Of a stretch of DNA of 33,719 nt, positions 1 through 33,719 are shown one piece after another. The notes beneath the pieces were generated by a model that was not told where the DNA came from, made no database searches, and saw only the letters and a program-made list of their open reading frames with translations. The stretch is from assembly GCF_003334315.1 (NCBI RefSeq), contig NZ_QOWR01000051.1; one strand, 5' to 3'. Source of the stretch: Escherichia coli (GTDB lineage: Bacteria; Pseudomonadota; Gammaproteobacteria; Enterobacterales; Enterobacteriaceae). Made by a program: the position numbers and the translations under genes. Position 1 is the first letter of the stretch; every line of letters begins with the position of its first letter.

Positions 1-81
1 AAGTCGCTGTCGTTCTCAAAATCGGTGGAGCTGCATGACAAAGTCATCGGGCATTATCTGAACATAAAACACTATCAATAA
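1..81 (+). CDS. insB: IS1 transposase InsB, C-terminal fragment (5' part outside window)
   Basis: In-frame translation ends ...[15 protein letters not shown] with TAA at 79-81; identical to the C-terminus of the 33282-33659 minus-strand ORF at the other edge. Confidence 0.85.
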   Translation, partial: KSLSFSKSVELHDKVIGHYLNIKHYQ

Positions 82-97
82 GTTGGAGTCATTACCC
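1..97 (+). mobile_element. IS1 insertion sequence, partial (insB-proximal end; continues left of the window)
   Basis: Bases 1-81 translate in frame 1 to [26 protein letters not shown], the C-terminus of IS1 InsB; 75-97 (atcaataagttggagtcattacc) is the IS1 terminal inverted repeat as I recall it. Recognised from memory, not searched. Confidence 0.9.
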
Positions 98-177
98 ATT
101 TTCTTGTCTCTCCGACAGACTGACCGAATTGTTATCAATGTTAACAAAAAAAGAACAATTGGTTATAAGGAGAGAGT

Positions 178-753
178 ATGCGTGTCATCACCCTGGCGGG
201 TAGTCCTCGCTTTCCTTCTCGCTCCAGCTCCTTGCTGGAATATGCGCGGGAAAAACTAAATGGCCTGGATGTAGAGGTTTATCACTGGAATCTGCAAAAC
301 TTCGCCCCGGAAGATCTGCTTTATGCTCGTTTCGATAGTCCGGCACTCAAGACCTTCACCGAACAGCTGCAACAGGCTGATGGACTGATAGTCGCTACAC
401 CTGTGTATAAAGCCGCCTATTCCGGCGCGCTGAAAACCCTGCTCGACCTGCTGCCAGAGCGCGCTTTGCAAGGCAAAGTGGTGCTACCGCTGGCGACGGG
501 CGGTACCGTGGCCCATCTGCTGGCGGTCGATTATGCCCTTAAACCAGTTTTAAGCGCACTGAAAGCTCAGGAGATCCTGCACGGCGTGTTTGCCGATGAC
601 TCACAAGTAATTGATTACCATCACAGACCCCAGTTCACGCCAAATCTGCAAACCCGTCTTGATACCGCGCTAGAAACTTTCTGGCAGGCATTGCACCGCC
701 GCGATGTTCAGGTTCCTGACCTTCTGTCTCTGCGAGGTAATGCCCATGCGTAA
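178..753 (+). CDS. ssuE: NADPH-dependent FMN reductase (sulfonate-sulfur utilisation)
   Basis: 191-aa ORF with RBS aaggagag upstream; product and length match E. coli SsuE; first gene of the ssuEADCB order. Confidence 0.93.
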   Translation: MRVITLAGSPRFPSRSSSLLEYAREKLNGLDVEVYHWNLQNFAPEDLLYARFDSPALKTFTEQLQQADGLIVATPVYKAAYSGALKTLLDLLPERALQGKVVLPLATGGTVAHLLAVDYALKPVLSALKAQEILHGVFADDSQVIDYHHRPQFTPNLQTRLDTALETFWQALHRRDVQVPDLLSLRGNAHA

Positions 754-4455: not shown

Positions 4456-7068
4456 TCAAGCCAGTGCTTTAGTTATCTTCTCGTACAGATCGCCAGAGAG
4501 ATTTTCCAGCCCTTTCAACTGTTCCAGCGCCGCGCGCATTTTCTCCTGACGTTTGGCATCGTAACGTTTCAGGCGAATCAGCGGTTCAATCAGACGTGAA
4601 GCCACCTGCGGGTTACGGCTGTTGAGGTCGGTAAGCATTTCCACCAGGAACAGGTAACCGCTGCCATCTTCGGCATGGAACGCTGCCGGATTGCTGCCCG
4701 CAAACGCGCCAATCAACGAACGAATACGGTTCGGGTTGCTCATGGTAAATGAGCGATGCTGCAACAGGCCGCGCACCGTCTCCAGCACATTCGCCGCCGG
4801 GCTGGTGGCTTGCAGGATAAACCATTTATCCATCACCAGACCGTTCTGATGCCACTTGTCGTCGTACTCCTGCATCAGCGCGTCACGGCAAGGCAGCTGT
4901 GCGGCAACCGCCGCAGAAAGCGCCGCCAGCGCATCAGTCATATTGTTTGCTTCGTGGAACTGCTTGCTCACCAGCACATCAGCCAGATGCGTTTCACCAA
5001 AAGCGAGGAAACGCAGGCAGGCATTACGCAGAGTGCGTTTTGCAATATCTTCATGCTCAACACGGTACTCGCTCTGGTAATTCGCGTTGTAAATAGCCAG
5101 TAGCTCATCCGCCAGTTCAGTCGCCAGAGTACGAGTGAGTGCTTCGCGTACTTCGGCAATAGCAATCGGGTCGATGATATCGAACAATTCAGCCATTTCA
5201 TTGACAGAAGGCAGCGTCAGGATTTCTGCCGCCAGCGCTGGATCAATCTTCTCATCAAGCAGTACCGCGCGGAAAGCATCAGCCACATGCACCGGCAGAG
5301 ACAGCGGCTGACCTTGCTGATGACGCGCGACGTTCAGCTTGATGTAGGTTGCCAGCAAACTTTGCGCCGCATCCCAGCGGGAGAAATCATTACGCGCATG
5401 ACGCATCAGGAAGGTCAGTTGCTGATCGCTCCACTTATATTCCAGTTTCACTGGCGCAGAGAATTCGCACAGCAGCGCAGGCACCGGCTGGAAGTAGACA
5501 TTATCAAAGACAAAGGTCTGTTCCGCCTGAGTGACGTTCAGCACGGAATTCACCGGATGACCGCCTTTCTGCAACGGGATCACTTTGCCTTCGTTATCAT
5601 ACAGTTCGATGGCAAACGGAATATGCAGCGGCTGTTTTTCTGCCTGATCCGGCGTGGCTGGCGTGCGCTGGCTGATGGTCAGGGTGTACTGCTCGGTTTC
5701 CGGATTGTAGTCGTCTTTGACGGTCACAATCGGTGTACCGGACTGGCTGTACCAACGGCGGAAATGGGAGAGATCGACATTCGACGCATCTTCCATCGCC
5801 TGCACAAAGTCGTCACAGGTCGCTGCACTACCATCATGACGCTCGAAATAAAGCTGCATCCCTTTCTGGAAGTTTTCTTCGCCAAGCAGGGTGTGGATCA
5901 TGCGAATCACTTCCGCGCCCTTCTCGTAAACGGTCAGGGTGTAGAAGTTGTTCATCTCAATGACCATATCCGGGCGGATCGGGTGCGCCATCGGGCTGGC
6001 GTCTTCTGCAAACTGCAATCCGCGCATGGTGCGTACATTATTGATGCGGTTAACTGCGCGGGAACCAAGGTCAGAGCTGAACTCCTGATCGCGGAAGACG
6101 GTTAAACCTTCTTTCAGGCTGAGCTGGAACCAGTCGCGACAGGTCACTCGGTTACCGGTCCAGTTATGGAAATATTCATGGCCGATAACGCGTTCAATAT
6201 CGAGGTAATCTTTGTCGGTGGCGGTGTCGGTGCGGGCCAGCACATATTTGGAGTTAAAGATATTCAGCCCCTTATTCTCCATTGCGCCCATATTGAAGAA
6301 ATCCACCGCGACGATCATATAGATGTCGAGGTCATACTCCAGGCCAAAGCGTTCTTCATCCCATTTCATGGAGTTTTTCACCGAGGTCATCGCCCACGGC
6401 GCGCGATCAAGGTTGCCGCGATCGACGTACAGCTCCAGTGCTACTTCGCGACCAGAACGCGTGGTAAAGGTATCGCGCAGTACATCAAAGTCGCCTGCCA
6501 CCAGCGCAAACAGGTAGCACGGTTTCGGGAACGGGTCCTGCCACTGTACCCAATGGCGTCCGTTTTCCAGTTCGCCTTGCGCAACGCGGTTACCATTGGA
6601 AAGCAGGAAGGGATATTTGATTTTATCGGCAATAATTTTGGTGGTAAAACGCGCCAGCACGTCCGGGCGGTCGAGATAATACGTAATATGGCGGAAACCT
6701 TCGGCTTCACACTGGGTGCAAAGCGCATCGCCTGACTGATAAAGCCCTTCCAGCGCGGTATTCGCCGCCGGGCTTATTTCATTAATGATCTTAAGCGTAA
6801 AACGCTCCGGCAAATTACTGATAACCAGTGCGCCCTCTTCTTCTTTCCAGGCGGTCCACGGCTCATCATTAATATGAACAGAAACCAGTTTGAGGTCTTC
6901 GCCGTTGAGACGAAGGGGAGCATCTGATGCACCATGACGGACAGCCTGGCTGACCGCGGTAACGACCGTCTTTTGCGCGTCGAGGTCAAAGGTCAAGTCA
7001 ATATCAGTAATCTGGTAATCCGGCGCACGATAATCGTGACGGTATTTGGCTTGTGGCTGTTGAGTCAT
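4456..7068 (-). CDS. pepN: Aminopeptidase N (M1 zinc metallopeptidase)
   Basis: 870-aa ORF with HEYFHNWTG (HExxH) zinc motif and GAMEN motif; length matches E. coli PepN. Confidence 0.95.
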   Translation of the reverse strand: MTQQPQAKYRHDYRAPDYQITDIDLTFDLDAQKTVVTAVSQAVRHGASDAPLRLNGEDLKLVSVHINDEPWTAWKEEEGALVISNLPERFTLKIINEISPAANTALEGLYQSGDALCTQCEAEGFRHITYYLDRPDVLARFTTKIIADKIKYPFLLSNGNRVAQGELENGRHWVQWQDPFPKPCYLFALVAGDFDVLRDTFTTRSGREVALELYVDRGNLDRAPWAMTSVKNSMKWDEERFGLEYDLDIYMIVAVDFFNMGAMENKGLNIFNSKYVLARTDTATDKDYLDIERVIGHEYFHNWTGNRVTCRDWFQLSLKEGLTVFRDQEFSSDLGSRAVNRINNVRTMRGLQFAEDASPMAHPIRPDMVIEMNNFYTLTVYEKGAEVIRMIHTLLGEENFQKGMQLYFERHDGSAATCDDFVQAMEDASNVDLSHFRRWYSQSGTPIVTVKDDYNPETEQYTLTISQRTPATPDQAEKQPLHIPFAIELYDNEGKVIPLQKGGHPVNSVLNVTQAEQTFVFDNVYFQPVPALLCEFSAPVKLEYKWSDQQLTFLMRHARNDFSRWDAAQSLLATYIKLNVARHQQGQPLSLPVHVADAFRAVLLDEKIDPALAAEILTLPSVNEMAELFDIIDPIAIAEVREALTRTLATELADELLAIYNANYQSEYRVEHEDIAKRTLRNACLRFLAFGETHLADVLVSKQFHEANNMTDALAALSAAVAAQLPCRDALMQEYDDKWHQNGLVMDKWFILQATSPAANVLETVRGLLQHRSFTMSNPNRIRSLIGAFAGSNPAAFHAEDGSGYLFLVEMLTDLNSRNPQVASRLIEPLIRLKRYDAKRQEKMRAALEQLKGLENLSGDLYEKITKALA

Positions 7069-10118: not shown

Positions 10119-10146
10119 AGAGCCAGCGCCCGCTGGCTCTTTTTTA
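10119..10146 (+). terminator. Intrinsic terminator of asnS
   Basis: agagccagcg-cc-cgctggctct hairpin followed by tttttat, 14 bp after the asnS stop. Confidence 0.8.
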
Positions 10147-28336: not shown

Positions 28337-29323
28337 CTAGTTGCCAGAAGCCAGCAAGGTTAGTTGCGTAAGCAGTTTCGCTGGTTCATCACCTGAAAGC
28401 TGTGCGTCTACAGGCAAATACCACCAATTTTCTTCTGCAAAGGCCCGGCATTTCACCGCATCTTTTTCAGTCATTACCAGCGTTTGCCCGGCGCTTACCA
28501 ACGCACTGACATCCGCATGGTTCAAAGACTGATGATCGGCCAGCGGTACACATTTTTCCGGTTGTACGCCACACATCTTCAGCGTGGCAAAAAAGCGCGG
28601 CGGATGCCCAATCCCCGCCATCGCCACTACATGTTCAAGCTGAGCAACGTCACAACGCGTACCGGTACGTAAATTCACCGCCTGACCCGGCAGCAGATGC
28701 ATGGGGATTTCACCGCTGCGAGGGACACCGCCGTTGACGATTACCGCATCAACCGACTTTAAGCGCCCCGCTCGCTCACGCATTGGCCCCGCCGGCAACC
28801 ACCAGCCATTGCCAAAGCGACGCACACCATCAATAACGACAATTTCCACATCACGCGCCAGACGGTAATGCTGTAAACCGTCGTCGGTTACGATGATCTG
28901 CACATCAGGGTGTTGCGCCAGAATGGCTTTTACCGCATCAGAACGAACGGGAGAAACCGCAACAGGCGCATCAGTGCGTTGATAAATCAACACAGGTTCA
29001 TCACCCGCCTGTGCTGTTGTGGTATCTGCCGACAATAACAGCGGATAAGATTCAGCCTTACCACCATATCCCCGCGATACGACCCCCACGCGAATACCGC
29101 GCTGTTGCAACTGTTCCACCAGCCAGACAACGACCGGGGTTTTTCCGTTGCCGCCTGCGGTGAGATTACCAACCACGACAACCGGTACGGGGGCACGCCA
29201 GGCGCGCTTCAGTTTTAGTTTATAGCAAAGACGGATCGCGCCACTCACCAGGCCATACAACCAGGAGAGTGGCAGCAATAGCCGCCACAAAGGGGATTCA
29301 CCAGACCAGATTTTTTCGATCAT
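28337..29323 (-). CDS. lpxK: Tetraacyldisaccharide 4'-kinase (lipid A biosynthesis)
   Basis: 328 aa with P-loop [12 protein letters not shown]; ATGA overlap with the msbA stop. Confidence 0.94.
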
Positions 29324-31068
29324 TGGCCAAACTGCATTTTGTGAAGTTGCGCGTAAACGCCGCGGTGCTCAAGCAAATCGTTATGCGTACCGCGTTCCAC
29401 AATGACACCATCCTCGACGACCACGATTTCGTCTGCCTTTTCAATGGTAGACAAGCGGTGGGCAATCACCAGAGAGGTACGGTTTTTCTGCAACTCATCC
29501 AGTGCCGCCTGAATCGCACGTTCGGATTCGGTATCCAGAGCCGAGGTAGCTTCGTCCAGAATCAGAATCGGGCTATCACGCAACAAGGCTCGAGCGATAG
29601 CAATACGCTGACGCTGACCGCCAGAGAGCAGCACGCCGTTTTCACCAATCACTGTATCGAGACCGTTATCCATCTTATTGATGAAGTCCATGGCGTAGGC
29701 CATACGCGCCGCTTCTTCAATTTGCTCACGGCTGTACTGTTCAGTCCGTGCGTAAGCAATGTTGTTAGCAACCGTATCGTTAAACAGATGGACATTCTGC
29801 GACACCAGAGCAACCTGGTTACGTAACGACGCCAGGGTATACTCGCGCAGATCGTGACCATCCATCAGGATTTCGCCTTCATCAATATCGTAAAAACGCG
29901 TGATCAGGCTGGCGATGGTTGATTTACCCGAACCAGAGCGTCCAACCAGAGCAACCGTCTTCCCTGCCGGAATTTTCAGGTTGATGTTACGCAATGCAGG
30001 TACGTCACGTCCCGGATAAGTAAAGGTGACATTGCGGAATTCCACGTCGCCAGTCGCACGCTCGATCACGCGCTTACCTTCATCTTTCTCCTGCTCACTG
30101 TCCAGAATGGTAAACAGCGTCTGACAAGCCGCCATACCGCGCTGGAACTGGGCGTTAACGTTGGTCAGCGATTTCAGCGGACGCATCAGTGCAATCATTG
30201 AAGAGAAAACAACGGTAATCGTACCGGCAGTCAGGCTATCCATGACACTTGGGAAGCTCGCCGCATACAGAACAAACGCCAGCGCCAAAGAGGCGATCAG
30301 CTGAATGATCGGATCAGAGATGGAAGAGGCTGAAACCATTTTCATCCCCTGAAGACGCATTCGGTTGCTGACTTTATCAAAGCGTTTCGTTTCCACTTCC
30401 TGACCACCGAAAATCAATACTTCTTTGTGGCCCTTCAGCATTTGTTCTGCGCTGGTGGTCACCTGCCCCATGGTGTTCTGCATGTTTTTACTGATGTTGC
30501 GAAAACGCTTCGATACAACGCGAATCGCAATCGAAACAATCGGTGCCAGCACAATCAAAATGATCGACAGTTGCCAACTGTAATAGAACATCATGATGAA
30601 CAGGCCGATGATCGACGCACCTTCACGCACAACAGTAATCAGTGCGCCGGAAGAAGAAGAAGCAACCTGTTCGGAATCGTAGGTAATACGTGACAACAGC
30701 GTACCCGTTGACTGTTTGTCAAAGAATGAAACTGGCATTCCCATCATGTGACCAAACAGGCGGCGACGCATGGTCATTACCACCTTTCCTGATACCCAGG
30801 AGATACAGTAGCTGGAGACATAGCTGGTGATACCACGTAAAATCATCAGCCCGATCACCACCAGCGGCATCCACACCAGCACGGAGCGATCTGTTTTACC
30901 AAAGCCATCATCAAGAAGTGGCTTAAGGAGCGATAACATGAAGGTATCGCTGGCTGCGTTGAGGATTAACGCTACGCCCGCCACGATCAGACCCGCTTTG
31001 AAAGGCGCAATGGTTGGCCACAGTCGGCGGAATGTCTGCCACGTAGAGAGATCTTTGTCGTTATGCAT
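29320..31068 (-). CDS. msbA: Lipid A/LPS flippase ABC transporter MsbA
   Basis: 582 aa with N-terminal transmembrane domain, Walker [10 protein letters not shown], signature LSGGQRQR and Walker [10 protein letters not shown]. Confidence 0.96.
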
Positions 31069-31104: not shown

Positions 31105-33266
31105 CTACCCGTTATCCACTGGCACGCCAAACCACTGATGATACCAACGAGGTAAAATTTGCTCCCTGAGGCTGCTAATCCGCCAGCCTTGCGCTGAAAA
31201 ATTGACCGTTGTTTGACCTTGATGTGGAGTATCAATCCATTGATATCCTTGCAGTTGATAGCGATGCTTAACTTTGTTAGAGGGCAGTCGCCATGCGTTA
31301 TAGCGCGATGCCGATGCGAGTGCCACTTTTCCATTCACTCGCTGAATTAATGGCAACGATGATGAGGTATTACTGCCATGGTGAGGTACCTGAAGCAATG
31401 TTGCCTGCACTTGCTGCCAGTAACGGCTTAGCATCTTTTGTTCAGCTGGGGCTTCAATATCACCGGTTAGAAGAATGCTATTCGTCCCGTCATCAACCTT
31501 AACCACACAGGAATGGTTATTTCCTTTATCGTTGCTACCTTGTAAAGGCCAGTGCGCGCTGAAACGCAATCCTTGCCATTGCCACGCTTCGCCACGCACA
31601 CAGGGCTGATGATGTTCCCAGTTTAACGGACTTCTGATCCATAACATCGGCCATATATGCAATATTGAATCCAGCCCTCCCCGGTGATCCAGATGTTCAT
31701 GGCTCAGAATAACGCCTTCCGGTTCAAGATTATGCCAGTGGAGCCAGGGGATAATCAGTTGTTGCCCACTATCCCCTTCAGGCCAGGCCAGTCCTGTGTC
31801 ATAGAGAATCGCTTTGCCGTTTCTGGCTATCACCATTGCCAGCCCTTGCCCGACATCAAGCATGTACAGCTGCCACTCGTCAGGTCGAGGTTTTTGCCAC
31901 AGCGGCCAGCACATCAGCAAGCCTCCAGCCACACACATTGCTGGCAACGTTCGCCAGGCGTTTAATCGCCATACCACCAGTAAGAACCATGGGGAAAATG
32001 ATAGCCATTGCCAACATTCAGCAATGTTGATCCACCCTTCCGGCAAACTCTTTAACCCCCAGAAAAGTAAAGCCAAAGACCGGTCGGCAAGAAACCATAA
32101 CCCTTGCTCCAGGATTAACGGCCCGCTTAAATGCACAACCATCGCGGCGAGGATCAACGGAACCGTGATAAATGTCACCAAGGGAATTGCTAATAGATTT
32201 GCAATAAACGAGGTCAGACTAATGCCATGAAATATGACGATTTGCACGGGCATAAGCAGAAGTGTGATTCCCAGTTGCAGATGGATGAGGGAAACAACTG
32301 CACGCAATACCGGCGGCAGTTGCCACTCAGGACAGGGAAACCACTGATACCAAAATATCAATGCCGCGACCGCAGCGGCAGAGAGCCATAAACTTTGCGA
32401 GAGAATGGCAACAGGATCCATCAGCAAAATTGCCGCCAGACAACATATCCATACATCCCAGCCACTCCACTGTCGCCCACTTAACTTAAGCATTCCCCAC
32501 GTAGCAAGCGCCACCATGGTACGCAATGCAGGAGGTTGCATTCCCGTCAACCAGGCATAAAAAGCAGCACAGCAGATTCCGCCAATTAATGGTATTTGCC
32601 AGTGGATCCAGCGCCCAGGCAGAAAAATTTGTCCACTGCGAATGAGTCCGGCAGCCAGCAACGCCGCAAAAGCGATGTGCAATCCCGATATCGCCATTAA
32701 ATGCGCCGTTCCAGTATCGCGCATGATATTTTTGATTTCTTTGGGGACGGATAACCGTTCCCCCATACCTAAACCAAGAATAACCGCATTCCACGGATAG
32801 GGTTGCAGCGTTGTTTGTAGTGACGCCAGATACTGTGCACGCAGGCTACAATTCGGTTCAATGACACTTGCCTGCAGAAAACGGCCGGTGAGCGGCTGAT
32901 GCTGGGCAATGGCATAACGCTGGCTATCAAAGCCGCCATCATTAAGTTGGCCATGAACTGCACGAACTTTGAGTTTCATTGACCATTGTTGTCCAGCACA
33001 AACCGCTTGCGGAAGATATTCGCCATACATCACGAGACCTGACGCAGGGAATATACGTCGACCTTGTAGATGAGTAATTTGACCGTAATGAGTGGTCATG
33101 CCGTCAGTTGCAGTGATCTCAACAATTGCATCCTGCGTCGCGCCAGTTAAGGTTTCTCCTGCCCACAAAATTTGCTTTGCTGATAATATGCCCCAAACGA
33201 AAAACAGCAACGTCAGCGCGATATAACGGACGGTTTTAACAGGGATAAATGCCAGTACGCAGGCGA
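31105..33266 (-). pseudogene. ycaI: ComEC/Rec2-family inner-membrane protein YcaI, 5'-truncated by IS1
   Basis: The 701-aa ORF begins at a TTG at 33210, but the frame stays open upstream through 33266 (...LACVLAFIPVKTVRYIALT-LLFFVWGILS...) and runs into the IS1 inverted repeat at 33267 with no start codon. K-12 YcaI is about 754 aa, so roughly 30-35 N-terminal codons are missing. Confidence 0.8.
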
Positions 33267-33719
33267 GGTAATGACTCCAACTTATTGATAGTGTTTTATG
33301 TTCAGATAATGCCCGATGACTTTGTCATGCAGCTCCACCGATTTTGAGAACGACAGCGACTTCCGTCCCAGCCGTGCCAGGTGCTGCCTCAGATTCAGGT
33401 TATGCCGCTCAATTCGCTGCGTATATCGCTTGCTGATTACGTGCAGCTTTCCCTTCAGGCGGGATTCATACAGCGGCCAGCCATCCGTCATCCATATCAC
33501 CACGTCAAAGGGTGACAGCAGGCTCATAAGACGCCCCAGCGTCGCCATAGTGCGTTCACCGAATACGTGCGCAACAACCGTCTTCCGGAGACTGTCATAC
33601 GCGTAAAACAGCCAGCGCTGGCGCGATTTAGCCCCGACATAGCCCCACTGTTCGTCCATTTCCGCGCAGACGATGACGTCACTGCCCGGCTGTATGCGCG
33701 AGGTTACCGACTGCGGCCT
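33267..33719 (-). mobile_element. IS1 insertion sequence, partial (insB-proximal end; continues right of the window)
   Basis: Terminal inverted repeat ggtaatgactccaacttattgat at 33267-33289, followed by the InsB reading frame on the minus strand; inverted relative to the left-edge copy. Confidence 0.92.
33282..33719 (-). CDS. insB: IS1 transposase InsB (N-terminus and insA outside window)
   Basis: Minus-strand frame reads ...[31 protein letters not shown]...[21 protein letters not shown], open to the window edge; the ORF track reports only the part after the internal Met (33282-33659). Confidence 0.9.

Follow-up and report, generated by a model that had tools for sequence, protein, structure and literature searches.

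What becomes of ycaI when an IS1 element stands in place of its 5' end? The question is raised by a 33,719-nucleotide stretch of Escherichia coli DNA (RefSeq assembly GCF_003334315.1, contig NZ_QOWR01000051.1), the whole of which is called the window here. In this window ycaI, which in E. coli K-12 (b0913) encodes a 754-amino-acid inner-membrane protein of the ComEC/Rec2 family, is joined directly to the right-hand end of an insertion sequence (IS) of the IS1 family. The answer that we consider very probable is that a single transposition of IS1A into codon 35 made ycaI a null insertional pseudogene.

IS1 is joined to codon 35 of ycaI

In the window ycaI is read from the minus strand and ends with a stop codon at 31105-31107. 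An original prediction, made from the letters of the window, had placed an IS1 junction at 33267 and had proposed that it truncates the 5' end of ycaI, the N-terminal segment expected from K-12 YcaI being missing. Alignment with the intact K-12 gene bears out the junction and places it at 33266|33267, at most 1 bp from the proposed position, 33267 being the last base of the IS1 right inverted repeat (IRR). The first ycaI base that is kept, 33266, corresponds to nucleotide (nt) 104 of K-12 ycaI, the second position of codon 35, and from there down to 31105 the window is identical to nt 104-2265 of MG1655 ycaI at 2162 of 2162 positions. On the other side of the junction, positions 33267-33719 are identical, at 453 of 453 nt, to MG1655 IS1A over its initial 453 nt as read from the IRR. 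Nucleotides 1-103 of K-12 ycaI (34 codons plus one nucleotide) are indeed absent from the window. Given exact identity over 453 + 2162 nt, chance can be taken to play no part in this arrangement. The codon that spans the junction, 33267-33265, is a hybrid CTC (Leu) in place of TTC (Phe35). The transposase genes of IS1 are transcribed in the same direction as ycaI, and the right-hand end of the window falls inside the element, whose far side lies beyond it. The features around the junction are the following.

31105-33266, minus strand: ycaI remnant, K-12 ycaI nt 104-2265, from the second base of codon 35 to the stop, by identity with MG1655 b0913
33258-33266, no strand assigned: IRR-side copy of the 9-bp target-site duplication CGCAGGCGA, equal to ycaI nt 104-112 (minus strand), the other copy being beyond the window
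33267-33719, minus strand: IS1 (IS1A type), the IRR-proximal 453 bp of the 768-bp element; an IS1A-family transposase is annotated in RefSeq carriers
33267-33289, no strand assigned: IS1 IRR, GGTAATGACTCCAACTTATTGAT, read from the sequence, with an outward-facing -35-like hexamer TTGGAG at 33280-33275
33282-33719, minus strand: 3' part of insB, which ends in a TAA at 33284-33282, leaving 15 nt to the end of IS1; open reading frame 33282-33659

The assignment to IS1 rests on several features. The part of insB in the window matches the NCBIfam profile NF033558 (IS1 family transposase) with 138 bits against a cutoff of 100, over profile positions 82-199 of 199. The window does not reach insA, and the full insA/insB pair with its -1 frameshift is annotated in other genomes carrying the same allele, which are described below. 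One of them, HS30-1, holds the whole element at this site, with a length of 768 bp (453 bp of which correspond to the window) that agrees with the approximately 768 bp of the family, and with one nucleotide different from MG1655 IS1A. The terminal inverted repeats are of the expected kind (about 23 bp, GGTRATG...), the left inverted repeat (IRL) having been read only in the HS30-1 copy, where it is GGTGATGCTGCCAACTTACTGAT, for comparison with the IRR. The target duplication, 8-9 bp in this family, is 9 bp in HS30-1 (CGCAGGCGA) and is deduced for the genome of the window from its one copy. The element thus shares inverted repeats, insA/insB layout and 9-bp duplication with IS1A of MG1655 (NC_000913.3, 19796-20563), to which the 453 bp here and a further 96 bp at the left end of the window are 100% identical. 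In MG1655 this IS1A stands at another chromosomal site, and ycaI is free of IS1.

From codon 35 to codon 754 the gene in the window is nucleotide-identical to that of K-12, and its neighbours are the same, with ihfB upstream and msbA-lpxK-ycaQ downstream. It differs from K-12 ycaI in that IS1 has cut off codons 1-34 together with the start, the ribosome-binding site and the promoter, none of which is in the window.

The same allele is found in complete E. coli genomes

We surveyed 5426 complete E. coli genomes with a 120-bp probe centred on the junction. It matched in one piece in 50 of them (about 1%); a 51st record with at least 80% probe coverage, TUM12357, is a two-piece match. A survey of the intact gene with a 400-bp probe of the K-12 ycaI 5' region (-97 to +303) found this region uninterrupted in 5375/5426 genomes, and the 51 exceptions match the 50 carriers and TUM12357. 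This single allele appears to account for essentially all disruptions at the 5' end of ycaI. TUM12357 (L002, NZ_CP134370.1, 6449-7146) has an independent IS1 in the ihfB-ycaI spacer, upstream of an intact 754-amino-acid ycaI.

These counts bear on the possibility that the junction is an assembly artefact produced by collapsed IS1 repeats, with ycaI intact in the source strain. The window does resemble a complete contig from short reads, both of whose ends fall in IS1, and two draft contigs, JBLMFG010000038.1 (33,615 bp) and PQPJ01000044.1 (33,357 bp), likewise start from this ycaI junction. Against this stand the identical junction in 50 independent complete genomes, a junction-spanning protein found on 316 contigs, and the exact joining of an IS1 terminus to ycaI, with 9 bp duplicated at the far end of IS1 in complete carriers, which is the signature of transposition. 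We regard an artefact as extremely improbable.

The complete genome of HS30-1 reproduces the final 720 bp of the window exactly and extends beyond it. At the identical junction its 768-bp IS1 is flanked on both sides by perfect 9-bp direct repeats CGCAGGCGA (ycaI nt 104-112); lengths of 7, 8 and 10 bp were compared as well and gave no match. Beyond IS1 come ycaI nt 112-1, then the native ribosome-binding site, then ihfB. The first 34 codons of ycaI are thereby displaced by 777 bp, and the stub that contains them can encode a 38-residue hydrophobic peptide (37 native residues and a glycine) ended by a TGA in the IRL. The order msbA, ycaI remnant, IS1, stub, ihfB was found in five further carriers.

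2018-11-3CC, Viet Nam: same order as HS30-1
BL12, duck, China: same order as HS30-1
OkiPb01684, bovine feces, Japan: same order as HS30-1
cM2a, Malawi: same order as HS30-1
S171-1, pangolin, China: same order as HS30-1

All six carriers that we examined have a 768-bp IS1 with a 9-bp direct repeat at either end and ycaI nt 1-112 directly beyond. Since the stub is adjacent and the 9 bp are duplicated, the insertion is a simple transposition and no IS1-mediated deletion took place. Truncation, the term of the original prediction, was therefore right as to the disruption and wrong as to its form: per these six genomes the gene is interrupted and split, not deleted at its 5' end. The prediction had itself named an N-terminus lying beyond IS1 as a finding that would count against it. 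Such a split gene is what the six carriers have, and the disruption stands nonetheless. Precise excision of IS1 would in principle restore ycaI. By extension from these carriers, the genome of the window probably has the same arrangement beyond IS1, namely the full element, the second target copy and the stub.

A remnant with no usable start, and no promoter at the junction

In the window the ycaI frame remains open across the junction and through 19 sense codons of IS1, where it is closed by an in-frame TGA at 33327-33325. No ATG, GTG or TTG occurs in this frame between that TGA and the TTG at 33210-33208. The original prediction had noted the lack of an upstream ATG, had given TTG 33210 as the first candidate start and had placed the first ATG deeper in the gene, all of which we confirmed, the ATG being at 33099. 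No Shine-Dalgarno-like motif was found upstream of either TTG 33210 or ATG 33099; the native start of K-12 ycaI is preceded by a strong ribosome-binding site, GGGAGGGG.

33267-33327, minus strand: extension of the ycaI frame into IS1, 19 sense codons, with the upstream TGA at 33327-33325
33208-33210, minus strand: first canonical in-frame start, TTG, K-12 codon 54 (Leu54), in the middle of transmembrane helix (TM) 3
33097-33099, minus strand: first in-frame ATG, K-12 Met91, inside the OB-fold domain

We considered 33210 as the natural start of an intact homologue, which would have removed the case for a truncation, and rejected it. The NCBIfam profile PRK11539 and the K-12 gene both reach about 53 codons further upstream, and the 5' region that such a start would make superfluous is the one uninterrupted in 99% of the complete genomes.

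The outward -35 box in an IS1 inverted repeat can form a promoter if a -10 box is suitably spaced (PMC8764528). The hexamers 16, 17 and 18 nt past TTGGAG in the window, GTACTG, TACTGG and ACTGGC, agree with TATAAT at 0, 2 and 1 of 6 positions, and no IS1 hybrid promoter was found at the junction by this -10 test at 16-18 bp spacing. A consensus promoter scan of 32900-33719 likewise gave no site. The suggestion that a promoter in IS1 or created at the junction drives ycaI is thus left without sequence support, since a hybrid promoter, a start codon and a ribosome-binding site are all lacking. Any read-through RNA would go untranslated after the insB stop, because it offers neither a start codon nor a ribosome-binding site.

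A known activating insertion gives a useful comparison. In E. coli sequence type (ST) 131, an IS1 hybrid promoter lies upstream of afaA (PMC8764528), and there, as here, an IS1 end with an outward -35 box stands co-directionally upstream of a coding region. Unlike in that case, the ycaI junction has no -10 box at the required spacing, and IS1 lies inside the gene rather than upstream of an intact one. The outcome expected here is inactivation, not activation. Insertion of IS1 upstream of osmB or ugd lowered transcription or left it unchanged (PMC8764528).

Without a usable translation start in the remnant or a promoter arising at the junction, the allele would be null. This agrees with the view of the original prediction that the ComEC-family protein is probably inactivated, and a loss of ycaI function is accordingly predicted for the carriers.

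We also searched for a CRP-S (Sxy-dependent) site that the insertion might have cut off from the gene. The candidate, TGGAAGCTGCCTCGCA, lies 137 nt upstream of the ycaI ATG in MG1655 (L004) and agrees with TGCGA-N6-TCGCA at only 8 of 10 positions, a match too weak for us to claim a severed competence promoter.

The remnant is a fragment of a ComEC/Rec2 protein

The remnant scores 1261.9 bits against PRK11539 (cutoff 969), aligning to profile positions 37-758 of 758; K-12 YcaI aligns to positions 3-758. Against TIGR00361 it scores 1129 bits (cutoff 190). On K-12 YcaI, the Pfam domains Competence (PF03772) and Lactamase_B (PF00753) cover residues 201-467 and 505-686. What the remnant still encodes begins within TM2 and runs through TM3, the OB fold (DUF4131) and the competence channel domain to the metallo-beta-lactamase domain. 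It thus has the score and the domains of the ComEC/Rec2 family, and it lacks the complete N-terminus of a ComEC protein, with three TM helices before the OB fold, a start and a ribosome-binding site. Judged by its sequence, it is to be regarded as a gene fragment and not as an intact member of the family.

A ComEC structure from cryo-electron microscopy shows eleven TM helices, three of them ahead of a periplasmic OB fold (bioRxiv 10.64898/2026.04.23.720307). Before residue 65, the hydrophobicity of YcaI peaks three times, with centres near residues 14, 35 and 56. Taken with this structure, the break at residue 35 means that TM1 and half of TM2 are lost. A product started downstream would have the wrong count of membrane passes before the OB fold, which would be misplaced.

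Could the remnant nevertheless be expressed as an N-terminally shortened or IS1-fused ComEC (a 726-amino-acid product or one started at TTG 33210), by read-through from the IRL promoter, with channel and nuclease functions kept? IS1 and ycaI are co-directional, the ycaI frame is open for 19 codons into IS1, and no intrinsic terminator-like site was found in 32900-33719 that would block read-through. The insertion spares the nuclease domain and the helices that line the channel (TM4-9), and TM1-3 are peripheral in the ComEC structure (bioRxiv 10.64898/2026.04.23.720307). The remnant is also undecayed in the window, and the RefSeq annotation pipeline (PGAP) calls a protein. Other observations speak against expression. 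The annotated start is an ATA without a Shine-Dalgarno sequence, no canonical start precedes codon 54, no candidate start has a ribosome-binding site, and no hybrid promoter is present. A start within TM2 or TM3 would alter the number of membrane passes before the OB fold and should misplace it. Polarity is a classical property of IS1 insertions, and IS1's promoter in the IRL is weak and repressed by InsA, both of which speak against expression, as does the tolerance by one carrier, cM2a, of a second IS1 in the remnant. We consider a functional shortened protein very unlikely.

RefSeq annotates the remnant as a protein

In RefSeq, PGAP annotates a coding sequence, 'ComEC family protein', of 726 amino acids, starting at an ATA codon that corresponds to 33285-33283, inside the IS1 repeat (6284-6286 of locus L001). 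This start was mapped from the coordinates of the coding sequence in HS30-1 and other carriers, where the gene is not marked as a pseudogene and the stub is listed as an incomplete hypothetical protein. The exact 726-amino-acid sequence is found at NCBI as 'MULTISPECIES: ComEC family protein', on the 316 contigs mentioned above. Pan-genome or competence-gene surveys based on annotation will score these strains as ycaI-positive.

A single insertion would explain the allele

We propose that a single transposition brought a 768-bp IS1A into codon 35 of ycaI, which is the E. coli homologue of ComEC/Rec2, in an ancestor of a K-12-like sublineage. The insertion would have duplicated 9 bp of the target (ycaI nt 104-112), and the allele would then have been inherited vertically. 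Codons 35-754 (window 33266-31105) would in this way have been separated from the native signals for expression, namely promoter, ribosome-binding site GGGAGGGG and ATG, and from the part of the gene that codes for TM1 and the first half of TM2. We take the allele, whose junction is identical in all carriers, to have a single origin.

Several observations weigh against this explanation or against a null allele. For the genome of the window, neither the far side of IS1 nor the second target copy is in the sequence. RefSeq annotates the remnant as an intact 726-amino-acid protein. Transcription of insA/insB faces the remnant, and read-through RNA may arise from it. The remnant in the window has no difference from K-12 and so no decay, and the sampled carriers have 0-1 substitutions each (one synonymous and two non-synonymous overall). 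The insertion would then be recent on the timescale of substitution, and sequence alone cannot demonstrate relaxed selection.

Two side observations concern individual carriers. In cM2a (L008, NZ_CM176588.1, 418-1130), a second IS1 is inserted in opposite orientation inside the ycaI remnant, which fits a gene no longer needed or under selection. The carrier locus L009 has a single-nucleotide polymorphism in the IRR, with no differences in the remnant.

Pseudogenes made by insertion sequences are known from IS-rich lineages of E. coli and Shigella. With one insertion in a dispensable gene, fixed in an IS1-rich lineage, ycaI::IS1 resembles them, and nothing about it is distinctive. The finding is real, and nothing in it goes beyond textbook biology: the element is IS1A, the target duplication is of 9 bp, and the effect is the inactivation of a dispensable gene by insertion. 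Its biological significance is small, no strong phenotype of ycaI loss being known in E. coli. One recent study reports a lower efficiency of chemical transformation for a ycaI nonsense mutant of DH5alpha (PMC12844161).

Carriers probably form a widespread sublineage rich in IS1

The chromosomes of ycaI::IS1 carriers have from 29 to at least 40 places that match IS1, versus a median of 10 per genome, which suggests an IS1-expanded sublineage. The one carrier for which we found a sequence type, 14EC001, is of ST793 and O115:H10, and has been described as an mcr-1 isolate (PMC6206212). The allele occurs in isolates from humans, poultry, pigs, ducks, dogs, frogs, a pangolin and sediment, across Asia and Africa. 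Among the papers searched, we found none that names ycaI together with IS1.

This wide geographic and host spread is the one support for an adaptive reading, in which the allele would have been favoured through altered transcription of msbA-lpxK, or in which loss of the ComEC channel would have been selected in an IS1-rich sublineage associated with animals and humans. We judge it very improbable. The main value of the insertional pseudogene lies elsewhere, as a lineage marker and as a correction to public annotation. Its junction (ycaI nt 112|IS1, with the 9-bp duplication CGCAGGCGA) is a clean marker of the K-12-like sublineage. Carriers are in addition natural ycaI knock-outs, of use for the study of ComEC-dependent DNA uptake and of DNA-as-nutrient phenotypes in wild backgrounds.

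Genes downstream of ycaI

The disrupted gene is followed by msbA and lpxK, and a co-directional IS1 now sits 2.2 kb upstream of these essential lipid A genes.

29320-31068, minus strand: msbA, essential lipid A flippase gene, by open reading frame and annotation, 36 bp downstream of ycaI

Being so placed, msbA is potentially exposed to the polarity of IS1. As msbA and lpxK are essential and the carriers are viable, both genes must be transcribed independently of the ycaI promoter. A promoter-like sequence, TTGGCG-17-TAGAAT, lies at 31130-31102 on the minus strand, overlapping the ycaI stop codon and 34 bp upstream of the msbA ATG. It is the sole match of the promoter scan in this region, a count not above that expected from shuffled sequences, and is proposed as a candidate independent promoter of msbA.

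A second IS1 at the left end of the window

The opposite end of the window also falls inside an IS1.

1-96, plus strand: end of a second IS1 (IRR end), 96/96 nt identical to IS1A; the transposase reads into the window, toward ssuE

This end stands 81 bp upstream of the ssuE ATG (178), within the control region of ssuEADCB, and is inverted relative to the copy in ycaI, with the IRR reversed at 74-96. Most probably the 33,719-bp window is one complete contig from short reads that breaks at these two IS1 copies, which explains why the far side of the IS1 in ycaI is unreadable for this genome. Through these two inverted copies the 33-kb segment from ssuE to ycaI could be inverted.

Such an event would provide another account of the ycaI junction, in which the IS1 at 33267 is a recombination joint in the genome of the window, the segment having been inverted or moved so that the stub is no longer adjacent. 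Both ends of the window are inward-facing IRR ends of IS1 (1-96 and 33267-33719) in inverted copies, the abundance of IS1 in carriers offers many recombination partners, and the far flanks are outside the window. In six of the six complete carriers examined, however, the stub is adjacent and the 9 bp are duplicated. We hold a rearrangement to be quite unlikely; an inversion would still leave ycaI disrupted, and the functional conclusion would not change. Simple insertion into codon 35 remains our preferred explanation.

Over 33.6 kb, HS30-1 differs from the window by six substitutions (at 1745, 3865, 8309, 9073, 10487 and 18574) and one insertion/deletion in a run of T. The latter is at 10139, in the asnS-ompF spacer, where the window has one T fewer than HS30-1.

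IS1 is absent from the ssuE site in HS30-1. We looked for complete genomes with both the IS1|ssuE and the ycaI|IS1 junction, and none of the best 40 matches to window 1-400 is a ycaI::IS1 carrier. The junction at 96/97 also occurs in CUVM53, 730V1 and some O25 strains, and in other genomes IS1 stands elsewhere in the spacer between elfA and ssuE, which looks like a hotspot for this element.

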